Shown piece by piece: positions 5,126 to 56,878 of a stretch of 64,000 bases of DNA. The DNA comes from a virus (Duplodnaviria; Heunggongvirae; Uroviricota; Caudoviricetes), in the IMG/VR virus record IMGVR_UViG_2974578326_000001, positions 26,711 through 90,710 of that record; one strand, 5' to 3'. The notes below the pieces were generated by a model that saw only the letters and a program-made list of their open reading frames with translations, was not told where the DNA came from and did no database searches. Made by a program: the position numbers and the translations under genes. Position 1 is the first letter of the stretch, and every line of letters starts with the position of its first letter.

Positions 5126-5138
5126 ATAACTCCTTGGA

Positions 5139-5983: not shown

Positions 5984-6183
5984 TATTTCCCCTTAAAAAT
6001 CTTTTTAATTCTTTTATAAATAACAAAAGACCAGAATAAAGGCCAAGATAAACTAATAATAGCAGAACCAAGAACAATTTCGTTCCATGGGTATTTTTTA
6101 AATGTTTTCTCATTTCTCTCAATATAAAATGCAATAGAGAGCATAAATGCTGTAAGTAAACAAAAACTAAAATAAATAATCAT
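5983..6183 (-). CDS. small membrane protein
   Basis: 66 aa with two hydrophobic helices. Confidence 0.35.
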   Translation of the reverse strand: MIIYFSFCLLTAFMLSIAFYIERNEKTFKKYPWNEIVLGSAIISLSWPLFWSFVIYKRIKKIFKGK

Positions 6184-7337: not shown

Positions 7338-7351
7338 GCCCTTTTAGATAA

Positions 7352-7783
7352 TTAGTTAAATGCTTTATTCTTCATCATATATGCAATAACATTTGCAATT
7401 TGTTCAACAGACGGTTCATCTTTATCTTCACCAACTTGATAATCTGTCATTGGTTCGTCAATGTCACTTTCTGGGACGATTTCTTTTTCCATATCCAAGT
7501 CTGTGATATCTTCAATGTCACTTTCATCAATTTCATTAAAAGTGTCAGGTTGAACAATTGTTTGGATCTCAGATCCAGATGCTTTGATAGCACTGTTGAA
7601 ATCAATTAAAGGAACCAGTTCTACATCACCCGAAGCAAGGAATAGGTGTACAGATTCCGGTGTTTGGTTCCGAGCAACTTCCACTTTGGTAATCTGGTTT
7701 AGATTCATTAGGAAGGATTCGTTTGTTCCCGTACGTGTCATTTCGAATAGTTTGATCATTGTTTGATTCCTTATTAACTTCAT
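7352..7783 (-). CDS. hypothetical highly acidic protein
   Basis: 143 aa, D/E-rich C-terminal half; overlaps FEN ORF by 158 nt. Confidence 0.35.
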   Translation of the reverse strand: MKLIRNQTMIKLFEMTRTGTNESFLMNLNQITKVEVARNQTPESVHLFLASGDVELVPLIDFNSAIKASGSEIQTIVQPDTFNEIDESDIEDITDLDMEKEIVPESDIDEPMTDYQVGEDKDEPSVEQIANVIAYMMKNKAFN

Positions 7784-8582: not shown

Positions 8583-8584
8583 TA

Positions 8585-8809
8585 TTAATCCTTTTTGAAC
8601 AATCCATCTTCTTCCATTTTACTTACAATACTTTCAAAGGCCTCAAAACTAGTTACTGCCTCTGATAGTCGAGAAGTTCGATGTTCAACAAAATCCCTTT
8701 CTTTATTTATTACTAAATACTCTTGTGAATATTTAGGTAATACAACTTTATATAGTTTACCATCTGTAATAATTTCCATATCATTACTCCGCATCAAAAG
8801 ATATATCAT
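8585..8809 (-). CDS. hypothetical protein
   Basis: 74-aa ORF. Confidence 0.35.
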   Translation of the reverse strand: MIYLLMRSNDMEIITDGKLYKVVLPKYSQEYLVINKERDFVEHRTSRLSEAVTSFEAFESIVSKMEEDGLFKKD

Positions 8810-9350
8810 AACGCTCTAAAGTAGAAACAAGAGAGTTTCTAATACGATGCAGTCTGACATACACAAAGTTCAAAGTTATACCGTGCTTCTTAGCCACTTC
8901 TTTAGTATCTGTATTCCTAAGATATATATCTGTAAATAATTCTTTATCATCATCTTTTAGTCTATTAAATGCCATTTGAATAAACTCAGATGATTCATTA
9001 TTTAAAATATCTCTAATTGGATCTGATATACCATCATCATGACTTTCAAAATCTAGTATATTATCATATAATTCTTTATCAGGTCTATCAAACTCTTTTC
9101 TAACATATCCATAACGGACATTATTAGCTATAGTACCGATAGCACCTGTTAGCTTATCCCACTGAATTCTGTCCCAATACAACCAAATCCTAAGTAAAGT
9201 TTCTTGGGCTAAATCTTCAGCTAAATGAAAATCTCTTTCAGTGAAATAAAATTGATCCCTAAGTGGTTTCCAATACTCTAAATATAGTTCATCAAAAGAG
9301 TATCTACCTTTTTTCTTTGGTTCTGGAGCTATAACCCTCTTCGCCATCAT
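8784..9350 (-). CDS. ECF-type sigma factor-like protein
   Basis: region-2-like AEDLAQETLLRIWLYW and region-4-like HTH GITLNFVYVRLHRIRNSL. Confidence 0.55.
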   Translation of the reverse strand: MMAKRVIAPEPKKKGRYSFDELYLEYWKPLRDQFYFTERDFHLAEDLAQETLLRIWLYWDRIQWDKLTGAIGTIANNVRYGYVRKEFDRPDKELYDNILDFESHDDGISDPIRDILNNESSEFIQMAFNRLKDDDKELFTDIYLRNTDTKEVAKKHGITLNFVYVRLHRIRNSLVSTLERYDISFDAE

Positions 9351-9368
9351 AAATTCCTTTTATTTGAT

Positions 9369-9396
9369 GTGAGATAAAAGCCCCTATAAAAGGGGC
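9369..9396 (-). terminator. rho-independent terminator after SSB gene
   Basis: perfect hairpin GCCCCT-ATAAA-AGGGGC (9380-9396), T-run on minus strand. Confidence 0.55.
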
Positions 9397-9413
9397 ACCA
9401 AGGTTATAAACTA

Positions 9414-10169
9414 TTAGAAAGGTACATCATCATCAAAATCTACAGATGGCTCATCGTCAGCTGATGGTTTTGACATAGATGATTTATTGTTATTATCACC
9501 AGTTGGTTTCTGGTCATCATCACTAATAGGTTCTTTACCAGCAAAAGGAATGTTCTCTGAGTCGAATGCCTCTGCTAATAAATCTCGTTGGAATTTATAA
9601 ACCTTAGAATAAGCTTGCATCATTTCCGGAGTATCAACATATGGGTTGAATGCAACCATCTCACAACGTGCTTCACCAACTTGACTACGGAACATGTTTG
9701 GAATAGAAGATACAGAAACAACTTTATTGCGTTTTTCACCACGTTTATTGATATAATGACCTACACGAACATTAACAATTTCACCAAGTTTATCCATAAA
9801 CCACTCTAAAGTGCGAGGTACTTCTTGGATTGAAGGGTCGATACATCGGCATAAATCGTAAACATTCCCACGTTTTGCTCCTGGGAATAAAAATACATCT
9901 TGGAACTGACATGACGGACGTGGTTCAATGTCTTTTCCTACACGATCTTTATCATCCTTATATTCTTTACCTGTTGCATCAACACCAATTAATTCGTAAG
10001 CTAAAGAGCATTTGAATGCAGGGGACTTTTCTTCACCTTTGTATGGTTGTTGTTTCTGAACACCTAGTCCAATGAAACGAACGATACGTGCTGGGTAATC
10101 ACCATCAGGAATAGTATCATATACAGTGAAAGATTTAGGTTTAGAATTTGAAGGGATTTCTGTACTCAT
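9414..10169 (-). CDS. single-stranded DNA-binding protein with acidic C-terminal tail
   Basis: 251 aa ending DDEPSVDFDDDVPF (SSB-Ct DDDIPF-type tail). Confidence 0.5.
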   Translation of the reverse strand: MSTEIPSNSKPKSFTVYDTIPDGDYPARIVRFIGLGVQKQQPYKGEEKSPAFKCSLAYELIGVDATGKEYKDDKDRVGKDIEPRPSCQFQDVFLFPGAKRGNVYDLCRCIDPSIQEVPRTLEWFMDKLGEIVNVRVGHYINKRGEKRNKVVSVSSIPNMFRSQVGEARCEMVAFNPYVDTPEMMQAYSKVYKFQRDLLAEAFDSENIPFAGKEPISDDDQKPTGDNNNKSSMSKPSADDEPSVDFDDDVPF

Positions 10170-10244
10170 ATTATATTACCTCATTAAATTAAGCTCGTAA
10201 GGAAACATATCTCAAAGTGAGGGTTTCCTCGTTTACATTATATA

Positions 10245-10706
10245 TTAGCTAACTTTTTCGTGAATACTTACACCTTTATTAGTAAATATTTCACCTAAAG
10301 TCATGCCATCAAAATATCTGAAATTTTTATCATTATCGTCAAATACATTTCTATGATCTGATAAACATCCACCAAACATTTTCCAATAGTGATAATCTAT
10401 ACTACTTCTACATGATAATACTCTGTTCATAAAAGCATATACATGTCTATCACTATAAACTCTACCATGTATAACTTCTGATTTGTTATTAACAAACCTC
10501 TGTATTGAATTAAAATTAATTCTAGGGAGTGTAAATAAACAATAGAAAATAGCAGTAAATGAAGAAGGTTTACTATATCCTATTCTAGAAGAGGATTCTA
10601 TACAATTTCTTATCCATTTAGGACAATCATAATACTCTTCTATTCCCATAAGATTAAAAAGATTTATGATATCAGAGTTATCAATATCTGTAGATTTTCT
10701 TGCCAT
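10245..10706 (-). CDS. hypothetical protein
   Basis: 153 aa; start codon immediately preceded by conserved motif copy 2. Confidence 0.4.
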   Translation of the reverse strand: MARKSTDIDNSDIINLFNLMGIEEYYDCPKWIRNCIESSSRIGYSKPSSFTAIFYCLFTLPRINFNSIQRFVNNKSEVIHGRVYSDRHVYAFMNRVLSCRSSIDYHYWKMFGGCLSDHRNVFDDNDKNFRYFDGMTLGEIFTNKGVSIHEKVS

Positions 10707-10713
10707 ATAATAC

Positions 10714-10748
10714 CTTATATATTATGTGCAATAATTATTTGTAGTTTT
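10714..10748 (-). promoter_or_regulatory. copy 2 of conserved promoter/operator-like motif
   Basis: ccttatatattatgtgcaataattatttgtagtttt; includes RBS and ATG of downstream ORF. Confidence 0.5.
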
Positions 10749-10962
10749 ATGGATTTTTTATAGTAGAATCTTTTATGATATAGACTTCTTCGTCTTCATC
10801 AAAACTATATAAATACCCATTTTCCATACACACTGCATTCATTTCACATTTCATATTTGAAAAGGGTGAAGGTTTTACTTTTGAGAAAATAAAACCATCT
10901 ATATTATAAAAACAATTTGAATGCGGTATATTTTTAAATTTTGTCAAATCATCCTTGAACAT
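10747..10962 (-). CDS. hypothetical protein
   Basis: 71-aa ORF. Confidence 0.35.
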   Translation of the reverse strand: MFKDDLTKFKNIPHSNCFYNIDGFIFSKVKPSPFSNMKCEMNAVCMENGYLYSFDEDEEVYIIKDSTIKNP

Positions 10963-10967
10963 ATATT

Positions 10968-11004
10968 ATTCCCAAATAAAAAGCCCCTATAAAAGAGGCT
11001 TTAT
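10968..11004 (-). terminator. rho-independent terminator after endolysin gene
   Basis: hairpin AAAGCCCCTATAAAAGAGGCTTT flanked by T-runs on both strands; shares 20 nt with the 9380 terminator. Confidence 0.5.
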
Positions 11005-11006
11005 TT

Positions 11007-11399
11007 TTAGATAAGTTCAAAATGTGGCATATCAAGTTTTTTGTTATAAATCCAACCATCTACTTTATTTGACCATGTACCACCCCATCGAATTGGAATA
11101 TTTAATTCCTCAGAAGCTTTAAACATAGCGATAGCCATTTTTTCAAACCTTGCTCTGTCTTTCCAGTCTATTGGATAGGGAACCATATCAATAGCATTAC
11201 CAGTTATGTGTTTAGAGTTCATTGTCCATGAAACCCCTTTATTAACATATTCCTTTTGCTTTTCAATAGTCCTGATACCTTCTGTTATAGTAACATCAAA
11301 TGGCATATATTCAAATGACTTTAATACAACTTTCTGTAATTTCTCATTAACAGAAGACAACCTTTCCTTTCCAGTGTTACTTAGTTTTACATTAGACAT
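11007..11399 (-). CDS. endolysin, peptidase M15 L-alanyl-D-glutamate peptidase (T5 Lys-like)
   Basis: 130 aa; collinear with T5 lysin; zinc-site motif SKHITGNAIDM. Confidence 0.8.
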   Translation of the reverse strand: MSNVKLSNTGKERLSSVNEKLQKVVLKSFEYMPFDVTITEGIRTIEKQKEYVNKGVSWTMNSKHITGNAIDMVPYPIDWKDRARFEKMAIAMFKASEELNIPIRWGGTWSNKVDGWIYNKKLDMPHFELI

Positions 11400-11449
11400 A
11401 ATACCTCCTATAAGTTATAAGATATTATAGTGGTAACTAATGTCTTTAC

Positions 11450-11701
11450 TTACCGTTTACGTTCTCTTAGAATTTTAAATGTATCACCGTCCTCTTCTAT
11501 AAGAGTAACTTTATACATATAAACACTTTCAAAGATTGTATTTCTTTTCAAGACACCCATAGCAAGTCTAGCTTCTTTACGAGTTGGACGTCTTATTACT
11601 GAAGCTGTTGAAAATGGATCAATTTTTAGATTAGGAATATTTTTTAGTCTAGATTCTACTTCCCACCAAGTTTTCATATTACTCTCCAAAGAATAAATCA
11701 A
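11450..11701 (-). CDS. hypothetical protein
   Basis: 83-aa ORF. Confidence 0.35.
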   Translation of the reverse strand: MIYSLESNMKTWWEVESRLKNIPNLKIDPFSTASVIRRPTRKEARLAMGVLKRNTIFESVYMYKVTLIEEDGDTFKILRERKR

Positions 11702-11771
11702 AAAGAAAAAAGATTACTGTAGCACCAGCTCCTATTAGGAACCATATATTGGGATCACCCATAATTAATCC

Positions 11772-12170
11772 TTAATATTTACCGCTAACTTTAAAATCCT
11801 CATAGTATTTGTATTTTCCTGTTTTATCAGAAAACTCTGAATCTTCATTGTTAGCTTCACACCCTAATTTGAAACCACACAAATCTCTATAAGATACAAT
11901 GGTTTCTGGGCTATCATCCATCCACACATCAGGAACCCATCCAATTGCTTCTGCAATGTGTGCTTTCTGTTTTCCTGAGCAATATATTACCTCTATACCT
12001 AATTCTTTTAAATCGGGTTCTAGGTCGTGTTCATTACCCTCTGGAAATCTATAAGTAAAAATCCTAACATCCCATTCAAATGATTTCATCAGGAATATGA
12101 TTTCTTTCCACTTATCACGATCAAGAGTGTACGTGTTATCATAATCTACTGCTATCTTTACAGTTTTCAT
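11772..12170 (-). CDS. HAD-superfamily phosphatase-like protein (possible 3'-phosphatase/5'-nucleotidase)
   Basis: motif I DxDxT (AVDYDNTYT) and DD motif (VWMDDS), resembling the T4 Pnkp phosphatase domain. Confidence 0.4.
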   Translation of the reverse strand: MKTVKIAVDYDNTYTLDRDKWKEIIFLMKSFEWDVRIFTYRFPEGNEHDLEPDLKELGIEVIYCSGKQKAHIAEAIGWVPDVWMDDSPETIVSYRDLCGFKLGCEANNEDSEFSDKTGKYKYYEDFKVSGKY

Positions 12171-44904: not shown

Positions 44905-46032
44905 TTATCCTTTTACATTAACAACAGGTTTAATATAGTGTAAAACTTCTACAAGATCTTCTTGAAGTCTCATAACATCAAAAATATCTTTATAGGCAAA
45001 AGGTGATTCATCTATTGTTGATTCACCAACAGTAGCACCTGGGATGTCTTTCATGGACTCTTTAAAGGATTCTAGTGTTACCTCTTTCTTAGCCTTAGAA
45101 CGACTCATAACACGACCAGCACCATGAGAGGAACTGTTCATGCTTTCTGGATTACCTTTACCACGAACAATGAAACAACCATCACGCATGTTTCCAGGAA
45201 TAACACCCATCATTCCATTATCAGCATGTGTTGCACCTTTTCGGTGAACCCATAAATTGTTTTTGAACTCAGCATGGTTATGATTTCTATTAATAATAGA
45301 ATTACCATCCATAGTGAATCCATTAACTGAGCATACACGCTGTGCAATGTATTCACGGTTCGCTAGTGCAAACTGAAGACCATATTCTAAATCTAGAATA
45401 TAATCTCTGCCCTCTTCAGAAGTCTCTGAAAGAGGACAAGCACTTTCAGCTTTTCCCTCATCACCAGAAGCCAATTTCATATACAATGATGCTATACCAT
45501 GTCCAATGGATCGACTACCAGAGTGGATAGTTAACCAAACTTGATCTTCTTCATCATATCCAATTTCAATGAAATGGTTTCCTCCACCAAGAGTTCCAAT
45601 ACAATTTGGAGCATGGCCAAGGATATCATTAATTCTGCTGGAATGTTTTGGTAGTACTTTTTGAGATAACCACTTACTTGCTTCTTGAAGATTTTCATTT
45701 TTAGAGAAACCCACAGGAACCGCTGAAAATATTTTATCTCTGATAGTTTCAGCATTATTGATTAAATCTCCTTTAGTTACACCAAGGAGTTTCACGGAGA
45801 ACATACCACATCCGATATCATATCCAACAAATGATGGGTATATTGTTCCAGCTGTTGAGACAACTGCACCAATTGGAAGTACATATCCAGAGTGGGCATC
45901 AGGCATTAATGCACCTTGAACTACATCAGGTAGTGACATTACATTTACAAATTGATCTATTGCACCTGATTCTAAATACTCTGCATAGATTTTATAAGGT
46001 TTATTTAATTCTTCTAGTTTTTTAAGTTTCAT
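44905..46032 (-). CDS. rtcB: RtcB-family RNA 3'-phosphate ligase
   Basis: metal/GTP-site motifs PDAHSGYVLPIG, NHNHAEF, SSHGAGR. Confidence 0.85.
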   Translation of the reverse strand: MKLKKLEELNKPYKIYAEYLESGAIDQFVNVMSLPDVVQGALMPDAHSGYVLPIGAVVSTAGTIYPSFVGYDIGCGMFSVKLLGVTKGDLINNAETIRDKIFSAVPVGFSKNENLQEASKWLSQKVLPKHSSRINDILGHAPNCIGTLGGGNHFIEIGYDEEDQVWLTIHSGSRSIGHGIASLYMKLASGDEGKAESACPLSETSEEGRDYILDLEYGLQFALANREYIAQRVCSVNGFTMDGNSIINRNHNHAEFKNNLWVHRKGATHADNGMMGVIPGNMRDGCFIVRGKGNPESMNSSSHGAGRVMSRSKAKKEVTLESFKESMKDIPGATVGESTIDESPFAYKDIFDVMRLQEDLVEVLHYIKPVVNVKG

Positions 46033-47016: not shown

Positions 47017-47148
47017 AACTAATAACCTTATTTAATTTGTGGAGAATGATGGATTCCAACCATCCACCCCACCTTGGGTAGCGAACTATCGGATGTTTGA
47101 TAGACATACGCCCAAGGTAGAGTTGCCGCATGCATCCCCATAGAATAT

Positions 47149-47224
47149 TGGTACCCTGTACAGGATTCGAACCTGTGACCTACGATTTAGAAGATCGTTG
47201 CTCTCTCCACTGAGCTAACAGGGT
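47149..47224 (-). tRNA. tRNA-Arg (anticodon UCU)
   Basis: 76-nt cloverleaf read on minus strand, anticodon loop CTTCTAA, T-loop GGTTCGAATCC, CCA encoded. Confidence 0.8.
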
Positions 47225-47228
47225 TAAT

Positions 47229-47305
47229 TGGTGGCCCTTGCTGGACTTGAACCAGCGACCAATCAGTTATGAGCTGATCGCTCTAACCATCTGAGCTAAA
47301 GGGCC
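47229..47305 (-). tRNA. tRNA-Met (anticodon CAU; elongator, or Ile2 if lysidinylated)
   Basis: 77-nt cloverleaf, anticodon loop CTCATAA, CCA encoded; 4 nt from tRNA-Arg. Confidence 0.75.
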
Positions 47306-47314
47306 ATTTTATTA

Positions 47315-47479
47315 ACAGGATTCATCACAAGGTGCATCACCGCATGTTTCACAAACTATTTTTGAATAGAAACACCCCTCTACTGAATCCCCGTCTAAAG
47401 TATCTACACCACAATCAGGGCAAACACCATTAGGTTTACTTCCATCACTTAAAAGGTTCCAACCATCACAACAAGCCAT
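47315..47479 (-). CDS. Cys-rich 54-aa protein (not in ORF track)
   Basis: 12 Cys incl. CPDCG, CETCGDAPC; AAGG SD upstream of ATG at 47479. Confidence 0.3.
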
Positions 47480-47480
47480 A

Positions 47481-47678
47481 TCACATACCTTTTTTCTTAT
47501 TATTTATATAATTAAACATACCCAAATCAGCACCATTTTTAATTGCAGCAGATATTAGTGTATCTGGGGAAATGTAATCTAAAACCTTGTCGATCTTACC
47601 TTCAATAATAAGACAATGTGCAATATCTGATTCATTATGTTCAAATATCAACTTCTGTAATAACTCAACGTTTCTCAT
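47481..47678 (-). CDS. hypothetical protein
   Basis: 65-aa ORF. Confidence 0.3.
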   Translation of the reverse strand: MRNVELLQKLIFEHNESDIAHCLIIEGKIDKVLDYISPDTLISAAIKNGADLGMFNYINNKKKGM

Positions 47679-47895
47679 TTAGATTTCCTTTTTCTTCACA
47701 CTCATCAGATAATATTGTACCACCAGAAATTACAATTAAAACAAATGCTAAGAAACCCCAAATAATACCACCTATTGGGTATACCAAATATAATTGCTCT
47801 CCTCGAAAACCAATATCATACCTTAGTTTTACAAAGAATGTGCAAATAGTAATTGTTAATACCATAGATAAGATAATCCATGTTCCTTTTTTCAT
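47665..47895 (-). CDS. small membrane protein
   Basis: 76 aa, 2 TM helices. Confidence 0.35.
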   Translation of the reverse strand: MKKGTWIILSMVLTITICTFFVKLRYDIGFRGEQLYLVYPIGGIIWGFLAFVLIVISGGTILSDECEEKGNLNEKR

Positions 47896-47909
47896 ATTTA
47901 TACCTTTAT

Positions 47910-47981
47910 CGCTCCGTGCAGGAATCGAACCTGCAACTACCTCTTAGGAGGAGGTTATTATATCCATTTAACTAACAGAGC
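47910..47981 (-). tRNA. tRNA-Arg (anticodon CCU)
   Basis: cloverleaf on minus strand, anticodon loop CTCCTAA, T-loop GGTTCGATTCC, no encoded CCA. Confidence 0.7.
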
Positions 47982-47986
47982 ATTGA

Positions 47987-48193
47987 TTATTTTTTAATAA
48001 ACGGTCGATCAACCGAAACAGTCCATCCAATCGTCACAGTAGTCATGAATATATAAAATAGAATTGCTTCATTGTCTCCAATTTGAGTATATCTACCCAA
48101 GTTGTATGATTGTATTGCTGTAATCAATACAGCTAAGAAAACCTTAAACATATTAATTACCTCAAAGTGGGCAACATTTAATCTGCTACCCAC
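47987..48193 (-). CDS. small membrane protein
   Basis: 68 aa, 2 TM helices. Confidence 0.35.
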   Translation of the reverse strand: MGSRLNVAHFEVINMFKVFLAVLITAIQSYNLGRYTQIGDNEAILFYIFMTTVTIGWTVSVDRPFIKK

Positions 48194-48204
48194 TGTATTA
48201 TTTA

Positions 48205-48861
48205 TTAATAATTACGGAGAACCGTTCGGGTTAAATCAGTTAGTGTTTTATCAGTTGTGTTTTCACCAATAACAGTAACTTCCCAACCAGAACCAGTTCG
48301 ATCAAGGCGGGCAAGAATAGCACATTCTTTTCCTGCGAACTTCTTATCATTTTCCATGTTAAATTCAGCAATCTTCATACCTTTGCCATCTTTAACAAGA
48401 CCATCGTAGATGTTAATTCCAATATATGGGATCTCATCAAACTTCTGATGGGAATAGGAGTTCAGAACTGCATACATGTGCTTAACATTGCTTGGGACTT
48501 TCAGACCCTTAATGGTAATGATTTCATTATCCATTCCATCATCTTCATCATCACCTGAACGATCATCACCAGTGTGTGTTACAGAGCCACACGAGGAACG
48601 CAACTTGCCAAAGTAAACAGTGTCAACTTTCTTTTTATCACCATCAGCCAAGATTAATGATAAATCCAAATCAACATCTTCTAAGATAGCTTTCTCTGCA
48701 CCAACAAAAGATAAAGCTTTACCTAATAAACCAGAAGCTTTGGAATTACCAGCTCGATTGATTTTACCCCAGTTAACACCAAATGAGATATCAATAACTG
48801 GTGTACCTTTCTCATTTAAAAGTCGAGTTGTTTCATTTTTATTTAATACTAAAGTTGACAT
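48205..48861 (-). CDS. TerD-domain protein
   Basis: VDLDLSLILAD..VYFGKL..GSVTHTGDDRSGDDEDD..EIITI match TerD calcium-binding signature. Confidence 0.7.
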   Translation of the reverse strand: MSTLVLNKNETTRLLNEKGTPVIDISFGVNWGKINRAGNSKASGLLGKALSFVGAEKAILEDVDLDLSLILADGDKKKVDTVYFGKLRSSCGSVTHTGDDRSGDDEDDGMDNEIITIKGLKVPSNVKHMYAVLNSYSHQKFDEIPYIGINIYDGLVKDGKGMKIAEFNMENDKKFAGKECAILARLDRTGSGWEVTVIGENTTDKTLTDLTRTVLRNY

Positions 48862-48870
48862 TATTTATCC

Positions 48871-50520
48871 TTAAATATAGAGCTTTAAATTATTTTTAAT
48901 ACGAGATTCAATCTCAGACCAATCAGTTGTCGTTACTTCACCATCCTTAAAAATGGTTAACAGTGAAGTGTTCTCTTCTTCTTCAACTGTTGCCTTGTCC
49001 TTGAATTTCAGGACTCCATCTTCATAGTAATGGTAAATGAGACCAGTTAATGATTTCTTACCAGGATCAGTAATTGGATCTTTCATTACTTCACGTGCTT
49101 CGCCATTAACAACACCATATGTTGCTTTGATTGCAAAACCAAAGGTATCACGGGTGATGTACTGATACGTGAATGCACCTACACCAAATACTACAGCAGA
49201 TGATGCATACCCTTTATCATGTAAACGCTCCATGATTTCATTAGCACGCTGTTTAGTGATTGAATCGCCGTAAAGAACGCCAACATGGGGATCGAGAACC
49301 TTGAAGCCTTTTGAGTTTATAGTGTGACCAAAGATTTCATCAAGTAATTGAACTACTCCTTTCATCTCAGGAGCCAGTTTATCAATTTGAGACCATTTAA
49401 AATCAAAACCAACATCTTTATCTTCTAAATAAGATGCGATATATTTCTTGCCATTAATAGTTTCAATAATGAAATCAGTAATCTCTCGATTATAACGTTG
49501 ACACAAGATATTATGAACATCATCAACGGTGTGATAATCAAGTTTTGTAATGTTACAGCGAATAACTGGTAAGCCACACAGGATATCAGCTGGATCACCT
49601 GAATCAGGTCGTGTTACAACCTTACCATCTCTGGAAAGGATTACATCTTTCAGCTCACGTAAGATTTTATCAACGTGGTTCCATGTATCCCAAGTATCAT
49701 TTACTATTGACACAATACCTGTTGGCGTTGTTTCTGTGATAAGACGACGAACAGTATCAAGTTCACCATCTTTCGTCCCCATGCACATTACAGAGTGTTC
49801 TGTTGCATCTACAGAACCACCACGTTCTGTTTTGTAAACGTGCTCAAATATCTCACGACCAAAAACAGAGTCAGTACCTTGGAACACAGATAAGTGAGCC
49901 ATACCAGCAATTGCTGATGCATAGATTCCATAATCACCACGGCTACTGAAATCATGACCTTGCCAATCAACATGTGAATTATCATCACAATTTCGAATTG
50001 CCCACTGTTCACAGAGTAGACGGAAATGAAATGCTGTTGTCGCAGAAGTAATGATAGGCCACATCTCTGCACTAATTAAGGTTTCAAGGTAGTTCACAAG
50101 CCAGAAAAAATCTGGATGGGTATTTTTAATTGTTAACATTGGGGTTCCAACATCAACAACTTCACCCTCTGGAACAACTTTAATTTCGAGTGGTAAGTAA
50201 CCAAGTTTGTGTAAAGCTCGGATACGGCTAATATCGTAATCTTTTCCGAGGTAACGATCAACAGAACGCTTCATCTCATCACAAATGCTTTCATCTTTTT
50301 GGAAGAATTCAGAATCAAATTCATCTTTAATCCAATTAGTAATGAAAGCTTGAAAACCAAAACTAAGAATCTTTGGATCATCAGTTACTTGTCTATCGGT
50401 AAATCGTTTTGCATTACGTGGTACAAAGTTACCATATATAAGACTTGTACCTTCTGGGTATTGATTTGCATGAGATAGTTTATAACCATCAATTGCAAAA
50501 ATAGGAGATGTTCTTTTCAT
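48871..50520 (-). CDS. NAMPT-family nicotinamide phosphoribosyltransferase (NadV/Namat-like)
   Basis: 549 aa; PIFAIDGYKLSHANQYP and GHDFSSRG match NAMPT N-terminal and catalytic motifs. Confidence 0.85.
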   Translation of the reverse strand: MKRTSPIFAIDGYKLSHANQYPEGTSLIYGNFVPRNAKRFTDRQVTDDPKILSFGFQAFITNWIKDEFDSEFFQKDESICDEMKRSVDRYLGKDYDISRIRALHKLGYLPLEIKVVPEGEVVDVGTPMLTIKNTHPDFFWLVNYLETLISAEMWPIITSATTAFHFRLLCEQWAIRNCDDNSHVDWQGHDFSSRGDYGIYASAIAGMAHLSVFQGTDSVFGREIFEHVYKTERGGSVDATEHSVMCMGTKDGELDTVRRLITETTPTGIVSIVNDTWDTWNHVDKILRELKDVILSRDGKVVTRPDSGDPADILCGLPVIRCNITKLDYHTVDDVHNILCQRYNREITDFIIETINGKKYIASYLEDKDVGFDFKWSQIDKLAPEMKGVVQLLDEIFGHTINSKGFKVLDPHVGVLYGDSITKQRANEIMERLHDKGYASSAVVFGVGAFTYQYITRDTFGFAIKATYGVVNGEAREVMKDPITDPGKKSLTGLIYHYYEDGVLKFKDKATVEEEENTSLLTIFKDGEVTTTDWSEIESRIKNNLKLYI

Positions 50521-50783
50521 TCTGAATCCAACTCAATTTCTAATGTTTTAATTCTACCAATAGCAAGGACAAGGGTGTTATTTTTAACAGATATAAGTGA
50601 TGCATCTTCTAATCTTAGATATGCATCATGCCCTTCATAGTTATTTTGAACCTTTATATAACTTCCATCAACTCTGCCATTAATTTTATAAATCTTACCA
50701 TCGTTAGGTTCTGTCATCCCTGACTGTATATATGGTAATTTTTTATCGACAACAACCTTTTTCAGAAATTTAGGGTTTTTCAA
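50517..50783 (-). CDS. hypothetical protein
   Basis: 88-aa ORF between NAMPT and PRPS-like genes. Confidence 0.35.
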   Translation of the reverse strand: MKNPKFLKKVVVDKKLPYIQSGMTEPNDGKIYKINGRVDGSYIKVQNNYEGHDAYLRLEDASLISVKNNTLVLAIGRIKTLEIELDSE

Positions 50784-50792
50784 TTGTAACCT

Positions 50793-51593
50793 CTACTTTG
50801 TCCAGTCATAAACAGCATAGATATGATCAATAATATTATAGAACACTTCTTTACCTTTTGAGAAGATACCATTCGTAACGAACAGAGAGATTGATTCAGG
50901 ATTACCCTTAGCTCTTAATGCTTTGGCTACTTCAACAAATGTACGACCACCATCACAAATATCATCAACAATAATCAGATTAGCGTCACAGTAGTCAATG
51001 GAAGTATTGACTTCTACACCAGTGATTTCTCCTGTTGATGTATCACGAATTTTACTTGCGTGTATAACAGGTTTGTTGAATAATTTTGATAACTCATGAA
51101 TCTTTTTATCAGCCCCTGCATCTGGTGATACAAATATTGTTTTTCCTTTAAACATCTCACCTATTGGTAAAGCGTGTTTGTGTTGCAGGAACACTTGAGA
51201 TTGTTTAATTACACTGGAATTATTTATCAGTGCTGGTGCAACATCAGAGTGTGGATCAATAAGAATAACTTCATCTGCATTCAAAGAGTTAACTAAGTTC
51301 GCAAACACTTTTAAAGAGAAGCACTCTGTTTTAGATGTTACACGATCTTGTCTTGCGAATGGTAGATATTCAAAGATGATTTTTAAATTACCATCTTTAC
51401 GTTTCATACGACTTACTACATCATGAATAAGAAGCATATCGATTACTTCATCAGAAGAGCGTAGAGAACAGATCATCTCAACATCAATAACAACTACTGG
51501 AGGTTTTGACAAAAGCTTGGCGTGTCTTTCACCTCCGTTAAATGAGAACAAATCAAATTCTTGAGGAATACCATTCATTGTTACATGAATCAT
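50793..51593 (-). CDS. ribose-phosphate pyrophosphokinase-like (PRPS/Adps-like) enzyme
   Basis: 266 aa; PFARQDR and PRPP-binding loop IVDDICDGGRT. Confidence 0.75.
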   Translation of the reverse strand: MIHVTMNGIPQEFDLFSFNGGERHAKLLSKPPVVVIDVEMICSLRSSDEVIDMLLIHDVVSRMKRKDGNLKIIFEYLPFARQDRVTSKTECFSLKVFANLVNSLNADEVILIDPHSDVAPALINNSSVIKQSQVFLQHKHALPIGEMFKGKTIFVSPDAGADKKIHELSKLFNKPVIHASKIRDTSTGEITGVEVNTSIDYCDANLIIVDDICDGGRTFVEVAKALRAKGNPESISLFVTNGIFSKGKEVFYNIIDHIYAVYDWTK

Positions 51594-51907
51594 TCTAAAT
51601 CCTCCACATATTTTTTATACCACTTATCAACCTTTTTACTAATTGAATCTTCCAGTAAAGAGATGAAATTTTCTTTAGTAATGAACCCTTTATTGCGATA
51701 ATAAAGAAAAGCACAATCAACAGAAGAAATAATAATGTCAGCAGTTTCATTAACTACATTCTCCATATGTTCATTATAAAGAATAGCAGACTGAAGTTCA
51801 CCAGACTCTTCTCCTACTTTTAATGCTACATCTTTTGGATCTCTTGCTAGACCAGCAACAAACGATGTATCTAATATTTTATTTAGAGATTCCATACTTA
51901 TCTTCAT
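51590..51907 (-). CDS. MazG-like nucleoside triphosphate pyrophosphohydrolase
   Basis: EESGELQSAIL and ETADIIISSV (EExxE / ExxD helices). Confidence 0.5.
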   Translation of the reverse strand: MKISMESLNKILDTSFVAGLARDPKDVALKVGEESGELQSAILYNEHMENVVNETADIIISSVDCAFLYYRNKGFITKENFISLLEDSISKKVDKWYKKYVEDLE

Positions 51908-52139
51908 CCCCTTTATGGAAACTATTATTCACAGAGTATGTTTTATCAACGTCTGATTGAATCAATGTTTCGACTACAGCATTATCTAATTTCTTAGCCT
52001 CAGAGTTTTTATCTGATTTATTTGCCATATAGATAAATAGAAAAGTAATAACAAAGAATAAGATAACACCACCCATCATCTGACCACTACTACCACTTCC
52101 AGTGATTCTTGGATCACCTAAATCATCGTCATCAATCAT
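51879..52139 (-). CDS. small membrane protein
   Basis: 86 aa; one TM helix. Confidence 0.35.
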   Translation of the reverse strand: MIDDDDLGDPRITGSGSSGQMMGGVILFFVITFLFIYMANKSDKNSEAKKLDNAVVETLIQSDVDKTYSVNNSFHKGDEDKYGISK

Positions 52140-52211
52140 TAACTTTCATACCAGTGTATTATTAAGATGATAAGGTATATAACTAAGAAAAAGTGATACA
52201 TCATATACCTC

Positions 52212-52234
52212 CTTATATTATGTGCAATAATTTA
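52212..52234 (-). promoter_or_regulatory. copy 3 of conserved promoter/operator-like motif
   Basis: cttatattatgtgcaataattta followed by AAGGAGG SD. Confidence 0.45.
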
Positions 52235-52729
52235 TCGACCAATTTTTGTACAATGAGGCATATTTTCTAGTCCTTCCTTTACCTCTGGTAATAAATCAAT
52301 TGCTAGTTTAAGGAAACTTATTGGAACCCTGTCACAAGAAGGCCTTTCTCTATTGATTTTAACAAGCTCTTCAAAAGGTTTCTCAAATAGTTTGTAACAA
52401 AATTGCAGGTCGAGATAATCAGCTAGCATTTTCCAATCAAGAACTGTACCAATATTAAAATTAGTGTTGCATATTATAATTTCTTTTATTTGGCTTCTTT
52501 TTGAAAGCTCGATAACTTGTGCCTTCATCATGTTTTTCATCAAAGACAGTGTTTCTTTATTATTTAGTCTTGAAAAGAATTCTTTTTTATCCATATCTCC
52601 AAATAAGGTTGTTCTCAAGTTATCTAAACTAACAACTGCAATCCTTCCTAAATCTCTTTTGCAACGTCTATTAGTCCAAGTGGTTTTACCCGCACCAGCA
52701 GAACCAATTGTTAATATTAACTTTTTCAT
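52232..52729 (-). CDS. polynucleotide 5'-kinase (T4 Pnk kinase domain only)
   Basis: MKKLILTIGSAGAGKTTW almost identical to T4 Pnkp N-terminus; collinear through the kinase domain; no HAD phosphatase domain. Confidence 0.7.
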   Translation of the reverse strand: MKKLILTIGSAGAGKTTWTNRRCKRDLGRIAVVSLDNLRTTLFGDMDKKEFFSRLNNKETLSLMKNMMKAQVIELSKRSQIKEIIICNTNFNIGTVLDWKMLADYLDLQFCYKLFEKPFEELVKINRERPSCDRVPISFLKLAIDLLPEVKEGLENMPHCTKIGR

Positions 52730-52740
52730 TTAATACCTTT

Positions 52741-53010
52741 CTATTTTACAAGAGTTAGGATTAAGATTAAAGTAACTATTATTACAATAGTTATTGATAA
52801 TACATTGTTTTTATTCACTCTTTTTTGTTTTAGTTTTTCGATAAGTAAATACCGATTCCACCATTTTTGAATAAGATTATTCAATTCATCATCTGAGTAT
52901 CCGCTGAATGAGTATGTTGTGTAAGCCATTAACAAATTATTATCAACTAAAACTGATCCCCTTTTATCATGAAACAATATCCTACCATCACCAAGTTGAT
53001 TTACTTTCAT
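52741..53010 (-). CDS. hypothetical protein with C-terminal TM helix
   Basis: 89-aa ORF. Confidence 0.35.
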   Translation of the reverse strand: MKVNQLGDGRILFHDKRGSVLVDNNLLMAYTTYSFSGYSDDELNNLIQKWWNRYLLIEKLKQKRVNKNNVLSITIVIIVTLILILTLVK

Positions 53011-53012
53011 AG

Positions 53013-53339
53013 TTACCTCAACTGAGAATCCTTAGAGCCTCTTCTATTGTATCCAGAGAATGTCTTGACATCTTTTAATGATTGACACTCTATACAGAAC
53101 TTAACACCTTTTAAAGCCTTTCTACGAGCTTCTGGTATTGGTTCACCACACTCTAAGCAGAACATTTCACTTTCACCTTTTGGTAAGTTTGCCCTTGCCC
53201 TTAAAATGCCATCATCAATAGTGGCTTTAATAGTATCTTGGAAATTGTCTATATTTCCGAAGCCAACTGCCATATTACACCTCAAAATAGGAGGAACATA
53301 ATGTTCCCCCCTTAGATTAAAAATTAACAATTCTTCCAT
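53013..53339 (-). CDS. DksA/TraR-family C4 zinc-finger protein
   Basis: CLECGEPIPEARRKALKGVKFCIECQ. Confidence 0.55.
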   Translation of the reverse strand: MEELLIFNLRGEHYVPPILRCNMAVGFGNIDNFQDTIKATIDDGILRARANLPKGESEMFCLECGEPIPEARRKALKGVKFCIECQSLKDVKTFSGYNRRGSKDSQLR

Positions 53340-53539
53340 TCAGTAATACCTGATAGAATTTCAACCCCATCAAGTTTACGATCTTTGTGGTTTTTAAGCT
53401 CACGAGTGAACACTGGGTTTTTAACATCTGAACCCTCTACCACTTCTTCAGAGTAAACAGCCTTGGTGAAAGCGCCTTTATTTTTAACAATAACAACAGC
53501 ACCAACTTCAGGACGTTTTTCTGAGATATTTAAGAACAT
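53324..53539 (-). CDS. hypothetical protein
   Basis: 71-aa ORF. Confidence 0.35.
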   Translation of the reverse strand: MFLNISEKRPEVGAVVIVKNKGAFTKAVYSEEVVEGSDVKNPVFTRELKNHKDRKLDGVEILSGITEWKNC

Positions 53540-53618
53540 ATTAATTTCACCTTTAATTTAAATTAAGATTAGGAGTCGCTCAAGATCCCTCAAGCGACTT
53601 ATTAATGATTACAGAGGT

Positions 53619-54203
53619 TTATGCTTTACGTGATTCTAAAATGTCAGCCAGACCATTCTTAGAGCTTTCACCAACTGGTTCTGCTAGGTTAGTTACTTGC
53701 CACTCACCGTTAGTATCTTTTTCAATCATGACGAATTCAACAGCAGTAGAGAATGCCGCATTTTCATCAAGTTTAGCTTCAAATAAAACTTTATCGTCAT
53801 CGCCATATAAACGAGCAACTGGATTTGTTGAAGCTGCAAAAGGAACTGGCTCGTTAGCACTGTAAGAAGTCACAGCGATTAATAATTTATTAGCCTGTAC
53901 TTTTGTTAAATCAATTTCAATTGTTTCATCGTCACCATCAGCTGCACCATCACGAGCGTCACCGTAGTGAACAACTCCTGCGACAGGGTTCTCTGCATTC
54001 CCATGCTCGTTACCTGTACAGTTTCCATAATAAGCAATGTTTTCAGAATCAGGTTGTTTAATCTTGCCGTTATCATCTAACGCAACAAGAACAGCATCTA
54101 AATCTGCACTTTCATCCCAAGCCAAACCAAAGCGTAACTTTGTTAGAGATTTTGCTGCTTTTGACATATTGATGGTTTGGTTTTTGCTTAATACGATAGA
54201 CAT
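53619..54203 (-). CDS. TerD-domain protein (second copy)
   Basis: FGLAWDESADLDAVLVALDDNG..HYGDARDGAADGDDETIEIDL. Confidence 0.7.
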   Translation of the reverse strand: MSIVLSKNQTINMSKAAKSLTKLRFGLAWDESADLDAVLVALDDNGKIKQPDSENIAYYGNCTGNEHGNAENPVAGVVHYGDARDGAADGDDETIEIDLTKVQANKLLIAVTSYSANEPVPFAASTNPVARLYGDDDKVLFEAKLDENAAFSTAVEFVMIEKDTNGEWQVTNLAEPVGESSKNGLADILESRKA

Positions 54204-54308
54204 ATATTAACTTCCTTATGAATGTTAAGGCATTATTGCCAGATAGAATGTTTTTACTACACAATAAAATATGTTAGGGGTCTTAAACTAACAACCCCTA
54301 AAGGTATT

Positions 54309-54617
54309 TTATCGGATTTGCATGCTTGTAATATCAATGCTACCAATAACAATCAAACGTGGTTTAGCTTGTGGGTTATGCATTTTATTTGAACGATAAC
54401 CACTGCAACCTGTGCGAAGATTAGATACATATAACCCTAGGCTAGTTTTTCCAGTAACAGCGTATAAATCACCATTGTTACCTTTATAAACATCACCATT
54501 AACTAACATTGAAGCTGATTTGATTTGAGATTTCTTGAACTTCTTAATCTTGTATTTTAAAGTTGCCATCTGTCTATACCTTTTACAGTTGTTTGATTTT
54601 AATGGACGAGTAAACAT
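54309..54617 (-). CDS. hypothetical basic protein
   Basis: 102-aa ORF. Confidence 0.35.
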   Translation of the reverse strand: MFTRPLKSNNCKRYRQMATLKYKIKKFKKSQIKSASMLVNGDVYKGNNGDLYAVTGKTSLGLYVSNLRTGCSGYRSNKMHNPQAKPRLIVIGSIDITSMQIR

Positions 54618-54670
54618 TAATATAAATGCTTAATAATAGAGCTACAGTAAATAGCCCTATGGTTAAGAAT

Positions 54671-55585
54671 TTATCTCTTGTTCAAAGATTTAATAACACC
54701 CATACCAAGTAGGGATAGGACTATAATCAAGGATAAAATTGGATTAATATGAAAACCAATAGTTGATGCAATTAATTTTAAACCTACAAAGATTAAAACA
54801 TAGCCAACATATGTTTCTAATTCCGATAACTTTTTAATCAAAATATCAAGAATAAAGAATAATGCTCTTAATCCAAGAATTGCCATGATAATTGCTGCAT
54901 AAACTAGTGTAGGTTCTTCTGTAATCGAGATGACAGCAGGTACACTATCGAACGAGAACATGATATCACTGAACTCGATAGCCACCATACAAAGGAAAAC
55001 AGGAGTAACATATTTAACACCATTAACGAAATGGAAGAAACGATCACCAGATGAAGTACCCGTGTAAACAGGGTAAAATTTCTTGACCATTTTGATGAAC
55101 CATTTATCGTCATAATTGACAGCTTCTTCTTCTTCATCTCCACCACCTTTTAAGATTGCGTAAGCAGACCATAGAACTATAAGTCCAAATACAACCTGAA
55201 CTAATGGGTGTAAATTAAACAGAGATGTTCCAAGGCTTACAAATATACCACGGAAGACTAAAGCACCAGCAATGCCCCATAACAATATCCGATGTTTTGT
55301 ATGAGTGTCTTTGATACCAAAGTACGAGAAGATTGCAATGAATACAACTAGGTTATCAATTGATAGAACCTTTTCCATTACATATCCACTATAATAGTGA
55401 ACCATACTAGTTGTGCCCATTAATAGCCACACAATAATACCAAAGGCAATACCAATACCTACCCAGAATACAGACCACATACAACTCTCACGGAAAGTCA
55501 TTTCTTTCTTGTTTCCATGACCAATAAAATCAAAGAAAATAGAAACTGAAATGACCATAGCCATTGCAATGTAAATACCAATCAT
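54671..55585 (-). CDS. TerC-family integral membrane protein
   Basis: multi-TM; duplicated signature VLSIDNLVVFIAIF and MFSFDSVPAVISI. Confidence 0.65.
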   Translation of the reverse strand: MIGIYIAMAMVISVSIFFDFIGHGNKKEMTFRESCMWSVFWVGIGIAFGIIVWLLMGTTSMVHYYSGYVMEKVLSIDNLVVFIAIFSYFGIKDTHTKHRILLWGIAGALVFRGIFVSLGTSLFNLHPLVQVVFGLIVLWSAYAILKGGGDEEEEAVNYDDKWFIKMVKKFYPVYTGTSSGDRFFHFVNGVKYVTPVFLCMVAIEFSDIMFSFDSVPAVISITEEPTLVYAAIIMAILGLRALFFILDILIKKLSELETYVGYVLIFVGLKLIASTIGFHINPILSLIIVLSLLGMGVIKSLNKR

Positions 55586-55779
55586 TAGATAACCTTTTTA
55601 ATCATTTTAACTTCTGAGCAAGGGAATTCAGCAACAATTTCATCGCCTACAAGGAACACATATACACCCATCATTCGATGGTTGTGTGGGTTATCTCTCT
55701 TAATTGAAAGATATAAATCTGCTTCAACTTCAACACCTGAATTATCATTGTAACCCATTCTAACTTCATACTTATTCAT
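55585..55779 (-). CDS. hypothetical protein
   Basis: 64-aa ORF. Confidence 0.35.
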   Translation of the reverse strand: MNKYEVRMGYNDNSGVEVEADLYLSIKRDNPHNHRMMGVYVFLVGDEIVAEFPCSEVKMIKKVI

Positions 55780-55840
55780 TTTATAACCTCTAATAAGTAG
55801 TTTCGGTTTTAAAGAGATCCGAAAACTCTATCGATGGGTA

Positions 55841-56425
55841 TTAGAACCCTACCGCAAAGCCAGCACCAATCGCATGGTCTTGTTCTGAGTTATGACTAAA
55901 TGATAACCGAACAGCAGTTGACCGTGTAGGTTTGATTTGAGCACCAACAGCTACTGCATTTTCGCCATTATACCAACCACCACCAACACCAACACTGAAT
56001 GTATCACCATCAACATAAGGGATATTTGACATAGCTGCTACACCAGAAATACCAGCAGACATTTTCTTTTCGCTTGTACGCATCCACTTCTGAACATCAC
56101 CACGCAAAGCACCAACCTGATTATCGGTGTAAGCAATGCTGCTTGATGAAGTAGCGACTAATTGATCACCAAAGTATTGCTCTGTTTGGTGTAACTTATC
56201 GTCAGTGTACTTGTTAGAAACCTTAATGGCTTCACTTTTACGGACATCAGTGTATTCATTAGAGCGTTGTTCTGCATCTAATGTTTCTTGGTGACTTGTT
56301 AGATACAACTCATAAGCATGTGCCTGCTCATAGGAAAGATCAGGGTATTTTTCTTCCAATGTTTGGGCAAATGCAGTAGAGGCAAGTAATAAGCCAGATA
56401 CTAAGGCAACAATTTGTTTTTTCAT
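55841..56425 (-). CDS. secreted outer-membrane protein with YadA-like C-terminal beta-barrel anchor
   Basis: signal peptide MKKQIVALVSGLLLASTAFA; C-terminal Gly/Ala-rich strands ending with aromatic F. Confidence 0.45.
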   Translation of the reverse strand: MKKQIVALVSGLLLASTAFAQTLEEKYPDLSYEQAHAYELYLTSHQETLDAEQRSNEYTDVRKSEAIKVSNKYTDDKLHQTEQYFGDQLVATSSSSIAYTDNQVGALRGDVQKWMRTSEKKMSAGISGVAAMSNIPYVDGDTFSVGVGGGWYNGENAVAVGAQIKPTRSTAVRLSFSHNSEQDHAIGAGFAVGF

Positions 56426-56810: not shown

Positions 56811-56878
56811 TTTGATAACCTCTTATATGGTTTAATAAATATTAACTAGTCCTCTGCGTGAAGACTAGGTGATATTCA

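Follow-up and report, generated by a model that had tools for sequence, protein, structure and literature searches.

The Ter system has been linked for decades to phage inhibition, colicin resistance and virulence, with no accepted mechanism. A set of Ter genes lies in the 64,000-nucleotide stretch of DNA analyzed here (the window; positions 26,711 to 90,710 of IMG/VR record IMGVR_UViG_2974578326_000001), where positions 48205-55585 form an island in which one TerC and two TerD-domain genes are interleaved with genes for nucleotide-processing enzymes and with small open reading frames (ORFs), every reading frame being on the minus strand. The island is 100% identical to positions 74915-82295 of Proteus phage Privateer (MT028297/NC_048861; Grimontviridae, Privateervirus), and its bounds are exact, 48205 being the stop of the first TerD gene and 55585 the start of TerC. 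Names for all of the genes recognized in an initial annotation of the window are present in the GenBank record, and the 2021 genome paper on Privateer flagged "three ter stress response proteins", to which it assigned no role. The locus is real but published and annotated, so that the observation is confirmed and is not new; what is added here is mainly the confirmation of the published annotation and the correction of an "NAMPT/PRPS salvage" assignment to NARP1, an NAD+-reconstitution anti-defence pathway. In the order of transcription, the island consists of the orphan ORF x64, TerC, x102, the TerD/E-like gene, x71, a hairpin, DksA/TraR, x89, a Pnk-type kinase, x86, a MazG-like gene, Adps, x88, Namat and the TerZ-like gene. 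The identities initially proposed (TerD twice, TerC, NAMPT, PRPS-like, MazG, Pnk-type kinase and DksA/TraR) are each supported by profile search, at E-values of 1e-10 to 1e-41 that are far beyond chance, the MazG assignment being the weakest.

The TerC protein (54671..55585; 304 amino acids) is a predicted TerC/Alx-family inner-membrane metal-homeostasis protein that matches PF03741 (E 1.4e-41) and, over its full length, TIGR03718 ("TerC/Alx family metal homeostasis membrane protein"; 293.5 bits against a cut-off of 246.4). It is 39% identical to plasmid TerC and 46-60% identical to the TerC proteins of other phage cassettes. The TerD/TerE-like protein, TerD2 (53619..54203; 194 amino acids), is a predicted soluble protein of the Ca2+-binding fold that matches PF02342 over its full length (E 1.5e-24) and aligns with Klebsiella TerD (2KXT) over residues 1-188 (E 1.4e-14), with the metal-binding motif GDxRxG...DGDDE retained; its closest plasmid paralogues are TerD and TerE. 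In the 16 phage TerD proteins that were aligned, the DxD, GD and DDE columns of the Ca2+-binding motif are invariant. The third protein, TerD1 (48205..48861; 218 amino acids; PF02342 E 2.4e-19), starts 9 nucleotides past Namat and is TerZ-like, with TerZ as the nearest plasmid paralogue (1e-22, compared with 5e-13 for TerD) and a common insert after the GxxW motif; at 99-99.5% identity, it is the best-conserved protein of the island within the genus. Both TerD proteins score above the PF02342 cut-off, so that the TerC and TerD assignments hold in profile searches. No island protein matched TerB, the vWA domain (TerF) or a double TerD domain in these searches, and the island contains no ATP-grasp or HAD genes. 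As judged from sequence, the Privateer Ter genes are a predicted minimal "terZCD" set, made up of TerC together with one TerD/E-like and one TerZ-like protein. Privateervirus and a related contig also have, directly upstream of TerC, a gene for a 194-residue protein (window 55841-56425; positions 888-1496 of contig L028) that is annotated as a "tail protein". Its sequence shows a signal peptide together with an outer-membrane anchor of the YadA type (PF03895, E 4.6e-10), and the protein may belong to the envelope of the infected cell and not to the virion.

The trio shares with the plasmid terZABCDE(F) operons (IncHI R478, pMER610, pRBL16) the TerC, TerD/E-like and TerZ-like proteins and the Ca2+-binding motif, and it corresponds to the gene set that is reported to be sufficient, non-toxic and needed for all three plasmid Ter phenotypes. 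On plasmids, terC and terD are the core ter genes and are toxic alone, the toxicity being relieved by terZ or terA (PMC8779313), and insertions in terZ, terC or terD are cited in a later paper as abolishing resistance to tellurite and to colicins as well as phage inhibition (Whelan 1995). The differences are nevertheless substantial: the phage and plasmid proteins are only 27-39% identical; Privateer is without TerA, TerB, TerE, TerF and the linked phosphoribosyltransferase (PRTase), ATP-grasp and HAD genes; the gene order is TerC-TerD-TerZ in the phage and Z-A-B-C-D-E on plasmids; and, unlike the plasmid operon, the Privateer cassette is split by 4.7 kb and is carried by a virulent phage. TerC and TerD genes on phages are known from the phage Ter operons of Iyer et al. 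2021 (Acinetobacter phage ME3 and Caulobacter jumbo phages), from Klebsiella phage phiKp34 and from phAPEC8. Those sets include TelA, a TerF-type vWA protein, PRTase_3 and HAD enzymes, whereas the Privateer-type cassette is a bare TerC-TerD-TerZ trio found in podophages and myophages of 75-92 kb and has a distinct, phage-only clade of TerD proteins. The phAPEC8 region (L009, 5069-12255) holds a fuller Aravind-type set with two HAD-type hydrolases, PRTase_3 (PF15610, E 1e-41), a phosphatase, TerC, an SprT-like protein and TelA; a tblastn search of this region returned no TerD.

The PRPS-like and NAMPT-like genes of the island, initially described as NAD-salvage enzymes, correspond to a more specific pathway. 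Osterman et al. (2024) described phage pairs of Prs and Nampt homologues in which Adps (ADP-ribose pyrophosphokinase) makes ADP-ribose pyrophosphate (ADPR-PP) from ADP-ribose and Namat (nicotinamide ADP-ribose transferase) joins ADPR-PP to nicotinamide, giving NAD+. This pathway, NARP1, defeats the Thoeris, DSR1/2, SIR2-HerA and SEFIR defences, and both the pathway and its anti-defence role are experimental for Bas63, Fado and SpbetaL1. The two Privateer proteins are listed in that work, the short Prs-like protein (50793..51593; 266 amino acids) as an Adps in Supplementary Table 1 (MT028297_00116) and the NAMPT-like protein (48871..50520; 549 amino acids) as an "Adps-associated" Namat in Supplementary Table 2 (MT028297_00114). 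The former matches Pribosyltran (E 2.7e-6) and TIGR01251 (E 1.5e-28, below the cut-off), falls below all NCBIfam cut-offs for ribose-phosphate diphosphokinases (99.6 bits against 113; 86 against 296) and reaches only 1.8e-13 with the best solved Prs structure; its placement in the Adps clade combines the published listing with these failed cut-offs and involves no new tree. The latter matches PF04095 (E 9e-37) and NAMPT_N, and its best solved relatives are the SpbetaL1 Namat structures 9W5X/9W5W (PMC12774641), with E 1.6e-126 and 426 bits as compared with 5e-63 and 216 bits for human NAMPT. The clamp-helix aromatics F392 and Y396 of SpbetaL1 Namat, which form the adenine "selectivity clamp" that gives the enzyme its ADPR-PP specificity, align with F450 and Y454 of the Privateer protein in the motif GVGAFTYQY. 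In the variable loop, which is 6 residues longer in Privateer, R40 aligns with R43, and the GHDFS, GTD, EHS and RPDSGD motifs, which hold the core equivalents of F189, D215, R306 and the catalytic histidine, are identical to those of 9W5X. Compared with the crystallized protein, Privateer Namat has an insertion of about 64 amino acids (residues 322-385; window 49366-49557) between the conserved halves. Namat-type genes with the FTYQ clamp motif are also common on the chromosomes of Enterobacterales and Bacteroidota, in agreement with recent reports of bacterial NARP1.

Adps and Namat are adjacent on the same strand, with one 88-residue ORF between them and junctions of 9 and 4 nucleotides. As in Bas63, Fado and SpbetaL1, the Prs-like gene is upstream of the NAMPT-like gene; unlike in those phages, an orphan ORF separates the two, at a position where some phages have the Macro-domain phosphatase Adpp, and the MazG-like gene overlaps the Adps start, which distinguishes Privateer from the known NARP1 loci. 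This ORF, x88 (50517..50783), lies in a variable spacer that contains one to three different small ORFs in relatives, with identities from 51% to 100%. That it might be a known NARP1 accessory (the Macro-domain Adpp, the RyR-domain RyDEP or aRad1) was considered and rejected, as it matched no such domain in Pfam, PHROGs, NCBIfam or PADLOC. On sequence criteria, then, the NAMPT/PRPS pair is assigned as a predicted NARP1 rather than as generic NAD salvage, and the phage was already catalogued as a NARP1 carrier. By analogy with the homologues, Adps would pyrophosphorylate ADP-ribose with ATP to ADPR-PP, and Namat would combine the product with nicotinamide into NAD+, refilling a pool destroyed by host defences of the TIR, SIR2 and SEFIR types. 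The nearest Namat proteins outside the genus, from Moazamivirus and Crifsvirus, are 46-50% identical, which points to inheritance of NARP1 within the family.

The Ter cassette has a distribution of its own. Contiguous TerC-TerD-TerZ genes are present in Crifsvirus GAP52, Libingvirus BUCT695, the Ounavirinae-like myophages Wc4 and P778 and 11 metagenomic or Logan contigs, with proteins 42-65% identical to those of Privateer. The TerD2-type clade, delimited at 50% identity in one account and at 38% identity or more with E of 1e-20 or better in another, comprises 46 proteins, each of which has its source in a phage or a phage-like contig. The usual arrangement in Grimontviridae is Adps-Namat-(0-3 small ORFs)-TerC-TerD-TerZ, within a conserved backbone that runs from a ProQ-like gene through endolysin and COOH-NH2 ligase genes to an amidotransferase. 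Privateervirus departs from this arrangement in that about 4.7 kb of DNA, with DksA, kinase, MazG and NARP1, has come to separate TerD from TerZ, and contig L028 has a kinase-like fragment alone at the TerD-TerZ site. As had been proposed as a check, gene order is kept in related phages: it is the same in every Privateervirus genome except for YP1, in which there is a deletion. Scans with a TerD alignment yielded only 2 loci in IMG/VR and 6 in JGI metagenomes, mostly short, and protein searches followed by contig look-up were more productive.

Several of these cassettes have further companions. In the myophage-type cassettes and in Logan contig SRR25685058_68648 (L031), one to three small ORFs separate TerC from an upstream radical SAM gene that is distantly RlmN/Cfr-like (L006 6111-6986, L007 6169-7044, L029 7871-8749, L030 6087-7049 and L031 2457-3332); the copies are 62-71% identical, all have NCBIfam scores far under the cut-offs, and the protein is absent from the Privateer window. 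L031 (2457-11622) encodes in succession this radical SAM protein, TerC, a second radical SAM protein, TerB, an OmpF/PhoE-like porin, a NupC-family nucleoside transporter (407.7 bits against a cut-off of 442), TerD and a TerZ-like protein. In Yersinia phage P778 (L021, 7870-14315), NARP1 is followed directly by rIIA and rIIB, at the position where Crifsvirus and Libingvirus have the Ter cassette. In T4, rIIA/rIIB are the classic counter-measure to a membrane-depolarizing exclusion system.

The initial annotation had interpreted the island as a single coordinated host-takeover or anti-defence module. The anti-defence label suits its NARP1 part, but one machine that spans the whole island is not supported by the comparative evidence. 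The TerC-TerD-TerZ cassette occurs without NARP1 nearby in the Wc4/P778-type myophages and in several contigs, among them L028, where no NARP1 lies within -4.5/+10 kb of Ter; in Wc4, Arno18/162 and J2-1, NARP1 is elsewhere in the genome, outside the Ter region, and P778 has 20 kb or more between the two. Conversely, Salmonella phage 7-11, which represents a sister genus, shares the backbone and has NARP1, with seven small ORFs taking the place of the Ter cassette. Proteus phage vB_PMG_YP1 (L003, 7936-8610, compared with window 48205-50900) lacks, through a natural deletion, Namat, x88 and the TerZ-like gene as well as the C-terminal 37 residues of Adps, yet is a viable isolate that keeps MazG, kinase, DksA, TerD and TerC at 79-98% identity. 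Among the best 80 bacterial Namat-type loci, Adps lies within 10 kb in 68 and a Ter gene in none. The linkage of Ter to phosphoribosyltransferases in bacteria, which had been offered as an argument for a single module, concerns enzymes of the PRTase_1/2/3-type families, which are not homologous to Adps and Namat. Homology to the Ter-linked enzymes of phAPEC8 and the IncHI plasmid ter locus was considered and rejected: Adps aligns with the plasmid PRTase only over a 31-residue loop that binds phosphoribosyl pyrophosphate (PRPP), shows nothing against phAPEC8 PRTase_3, and matches only Pribosyltran and Prs models. Taken together, the data favor separately inherited units that have an accessory-gene region in common. 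We consider it probable that the island is a composite, brought together in an accessory arm of the genome, of NARP1, the terZCD cassette and three independent takeover or repair genes.

Within such a composite, the most likely role of the Ter cassette is to change the flux of divalent cations and the state of the envelope during infection. Its Alx/TerC-type metal transporter of the inner membrane and its two soluble, Ca2+-binding proteins of the TerD fold would act jointly on both, and the payoff may be, as for plasmids, that other phages are excluded, pore-forming colicins are resisted and metals or tellurite are tolerated; a role of phage Ter genes in excluding or competing with superinfecting phages has been proposed (PMC7824862; Iyer et al. 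2021). TerD genes are within 3 kb of a membrane cation transporter in 11 of the 11 TerD phage lineages examined. The transporter is TerC in Privateervirus, Crifsvirus, Libingvirus, the Wc4/P778 type, Kikimora and Lysinibacillus phage LysYB1, and an Na_Ca_ex exchanger in Vibrio phages D93, 1.084.O and D69 and in Pseudoalteromonas phage J2-1, with an Ion_trans_2 channel added in two; the exchanger matches have E-values of 1e-29 to 1e-31 in three marine phages and are annotated only in J2-1. The marine loci (L008 of D93, 8272-11867; L010 of 1.084.O, 7221-11521; L115 of J2-1, 4281-8937; L118 of D69, 4710-9949) have three TerD paralogues in a row, followed by the exchanger in place of TerC. Proteins of about 150 residues beside TerD in the Vibrio phages were considered as divergent TerB and rejected at an hhalign probability of 2.6%.

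The main rival account of the cassette, compatible with a role in conflict, would make it a physiological helper that tunes Mn2+, Zn2+ or Ca2+, or relieves envelope or oxidative stress, and so allows phage enzymes to work and the cell to stay productive up to lysis. TerC has the profile score of a TerC/Alx metal-homeostasis protein, Klebsiella terC adds to Zn(II) and Mn(II) resistance within a metal-induced operon (PMC12054061), the TerD proteins keep their Ca2+-binding motif, and the marine phages have a Ca2+ exchanger in place of TerC, along with an added K+-type channel. RtcB, a Mn2+-dependent enzyme that could be kept working in this manner, is one gene from TerD in Kikimora (L116, 7830-9044) and, in Privateer, lies at a distance of 2.2 kb from the TerZ-like gene. 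We nevertheless regard a purely physiological role as unlikely, given that phage inhibition and colicin resistance on plasmids depend on these same three genes, and that in Privateer the cassette sits amid known anti-defence and takeover genes, namely NARP1, DksA/TraR and an Srd-like sigma-70 decoy.

A composite origin is itself opposed by several observations. The TerZ-like gene starts just 9 nucleotides past Namat, and in the type-1 relatives TerC starts 0-10 nucleotides past a small ORF that overlaps Namat; gaps this short make co-transcription of NARP1 and Ter likely. NARP1 abuts Ter, with overlapping or nearly touching frames, in three Grimontviridae genera and four uncultivated relatives. 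Vibrio phage D69 (L118, 1-1340) has an NMN (nicotinamide mononucleotide) adenylyltransferase (NMNAT) and PnuC 3.4 kb upstream of three TerD genes, and Brevundimonas phage Kikimora (L119, 4543-7106) has TelA-TerC-TerD-RtcB 10 kb upstream of NARP2 (NMNAT/Nudix and Nampt), so that, in three unrelated lineages, no more than 10 kb separates Ter from an NAD+ salvage pathway, a different one each time (NARP1, NMNAT with PnuC, and NARP2). NAD+ salvage genes are present in 7 of the 11 TerD phage lineages, compared with about 5.4% of all phages, and one contig, L031, has the NupC nucleoside transporter within its cassette. Moreover, the role proposed above for the cassette is one that we infer from plasmid phenotypes and gene neighbourhoods. 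Ter and NAD+ salvage are within 10 kb in three of the five lineages that have both, for which P = 0.024 if placement is uniform and 0.15 if accessory genes fill half of the genome. These values, together with the three pathways, mean that a looser functional or selective link between Ter and NAD+ salvage in phages is not to be dismissed; the association is suggestive, not decisive. In its strict form, such a link would make Ter and NARP1 one module, in which the TerD-fold proteins sense ADP-ribose, a nucleoside-like product or a defence signal and act as a gate on TerC, the metabolite being one that Adps and Namat also process. The pairing of Ter with other phosphoribosyltransferases and HAD enzymes in phAPEC8 and at the plasmid ter locus would also accord with this. 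In our judgment one module is distinctly unlikely, as the adjacency in Grimontviridae is ancestral backbone synteny, shared by 7-11 with its small ORFs in place of Ter, the placement statistic weakens when accessory genes are clustered, and the losses, separations and non-homologous enzyme families described above all run counter to it.

A related proposal, about which we are similarly doubtful, is that Ter cassettes are a counter-defence or ion-homeostasis device tied to NAD+ salvage. TerD with an interchangeable cation transporter would neutralize the membrane or ion arm of abortive infection, or would sense an ADP-ribose- or nucleoside-like ligand, while the NAD+-depletion arm of the same responses would be neutralized by NARP1, NARP2 or NadR-PnuC. 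Such a device would explain why Ter lies within 10 kb of three NAD+ pathways in three lineages and, if the tie to NAD+ salvage is true, would provide a defined biochemical role for a Ter system that is 40 years old. If the cassette is a superinfection-exclusion or anti-abortive-infection device, it would be a new class of phage weapon, with a bearing on the selection of Proteus and Cronobacter phages for therapy. The Privateer lineage is a clean test bed for these questions, with a bare TerC-TerD-TerZ trio, a NARP1 neighbour for which assays are established, and useful natural variants: YP1, which has neither the TerZ-like gene nor Namat, contiguous and split cassettes, and the marine phages in which a Ca2+ exchanger replaces TerC. 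Classical salvage, in which the NAMPT- and PRPS-like proteins would make NMN and PRPP to boost replication supply independently of immunity, is suggested by the Pfam names, by the GenBank annotation and by the PRPP-dependent NMN synthesis that Namat enzymes partly keep in vitro (PMC12774641), but is very improbable for a PRPS-like protein below every Prs family cut-off and a NAMPT-like protein that is in the Adps-associated clade, far nearer to crystallized Namat and equipped with the adenine-clamp residues, in an island with no NMN adenylyltransferase among the proteins scanned and with a homologous pair in Bas63 that makes ADPR-PP, independently of host routes from NMN to NAD+.

Returning to the composite island, its transcription has been described as that of an early leftward operon. 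The genes are indeed co-directional on one strand, but a strong terminator-like hairpin (53284..53311, minus strand), marked as a terminator in the GenBank record, lies between x71 and the DksA start and separates TerC-TerD-x71 from the genes that run from DksA to TerD1. It has a G+C-rich stem of 10 bp followed by AUUUUG and folds with a dG of -16.4 kcal/mol (z -2.75); folding was computed for this hairpin only. Short G+C-rich hairpins are present in nearly all gaps of the array (48152-48204, 53274-53323, 53540-53618, 54204-54308, 54618-54670, 55780-55840 and 56811-56878), several of them preceding T-runs, and are candidate attenuators, processing sites or mRNA stabilizers. A scan for sigma-70 promoters found 36 sites, fewer than the 50.9 in shuffled sequence, and so is uninformative on timing; Privateer encodes an extracytoplasmic function (ECF) sigma factor of its own. 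None of the 10 island proteins scanned matched a PADLOC defence-system model.

The remaining named genes would be three independent functions in host takeover or repair: a predicted RNA polymerase secondary-channel binder of the YbiI/TraR type, a kinase-only homologue of T4 Pnk and a small MazG-type pyrophosphohydrolase. The first is a DksA/TraR-family (YbiI-like) C4 zinc-finger protein (53013..53273; 86 amino acids; PF01258 E 1.6e-11; PHROG 54 E 9e-21) that shares with E. coli YbiI and with plasmid and phage TraR a full-length NF008243 match and the four-cysteine zinc finger. A mechanically delimited ORF of 108 amino acids (53013-53339, ATG at 53339) reads through the terminator hairpin; NF008243 (116.6 bits against a cut-off of 96) matches only its residues 23-108, which supports the annotated start at 53273. 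The second (52232..52729; 165 amino acids) is a predicted polynucleotide 5'-kinase domain of the T4 Pnk type that matches AAA_33 (E 6.5e-10), PHROG 505 (polynucleotide kinase; E 3.6e-22, positions 1-138 of 295) and, over residues 1-142, the T4 Pnk kinase domain 1LY1/1LTQ (E ~1e-11; 1LY1 1.2e-11). The P-loop and the equivalents of D35, R38 and R126 of T4 Pnk are aligned, whereas the C-terminal HAD-type 3'-phosphatase domain is missing, the protein having 165 residues compared with 301. An RtcB RNA ligase and three tRNA genes are encoded 2-3 kb downstream of the TerZ-like gene (window 44905-46032 and 47100-47990); RtcB requires neither a 5'-phosphate nor a 5'-kinase. The third, the small MazG/HisE-type all-alpha NTP pyrophosphohydrolase (51590..51907), is recognized by PHROG 1247 ("MazG-like pyrophosphatase", E 9e-17), with matches below the cut-off to Pfam PRA-PH (0.0026; 18.6 bits against 21.3) and TIGR03188 (9e-6; 25.8 against 42.7); according to the depositors of the GenBank record, HHpred matches it to B. 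cereus MazG. The gene, which YP1 retains, shares 4 nucleotides at its stop with the start of Adps.

The seven small ORFs among the named genes (64-102 amino acids) have no family match in scans of Pfam, PHROG, NCBIfam and PADLOC and are probably fast-turnover filler. Besides x88, they include x64 (55585..55779; 64 amino acids), whose stop overlaps the TerC start; x102 (54309..54617, annotated as 54309-54569), followed by a hairpin; x71 (53324..53539; 71 amino acids), 94-99% identical within the genus; x89 (52741..53010; 89 amino acids), with a hydrophobic C-terminus; and x86 (51879..52139; 86 amino acids), with one predicted membrane helix. x64 is 97-100% identical within the genus, other genera carrying a different small ORF at the same position, and the x102 slot holds different genes across genera. 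x89 is specific to Privateer, having no homologue in the other four Privateervirus loci, and its slot is occupied in relatives by ORFs of different sizes. Across genera, the small ORFs in equivalent slots show no homology, apart from a few pairs of which none is related to Privateer. Identity within the genus is 79-99.5% for the eight named genes, between which the small ORFs have been exchanged. The kinase (52232-52729) is only 79-81% identical and x88 (50517-50783) 51-100% identical to their counterparts in L002, L033, L034 and L003, amid neighbours at 94-99.5%, which points to recombination at these two spots and to a mosaic island.

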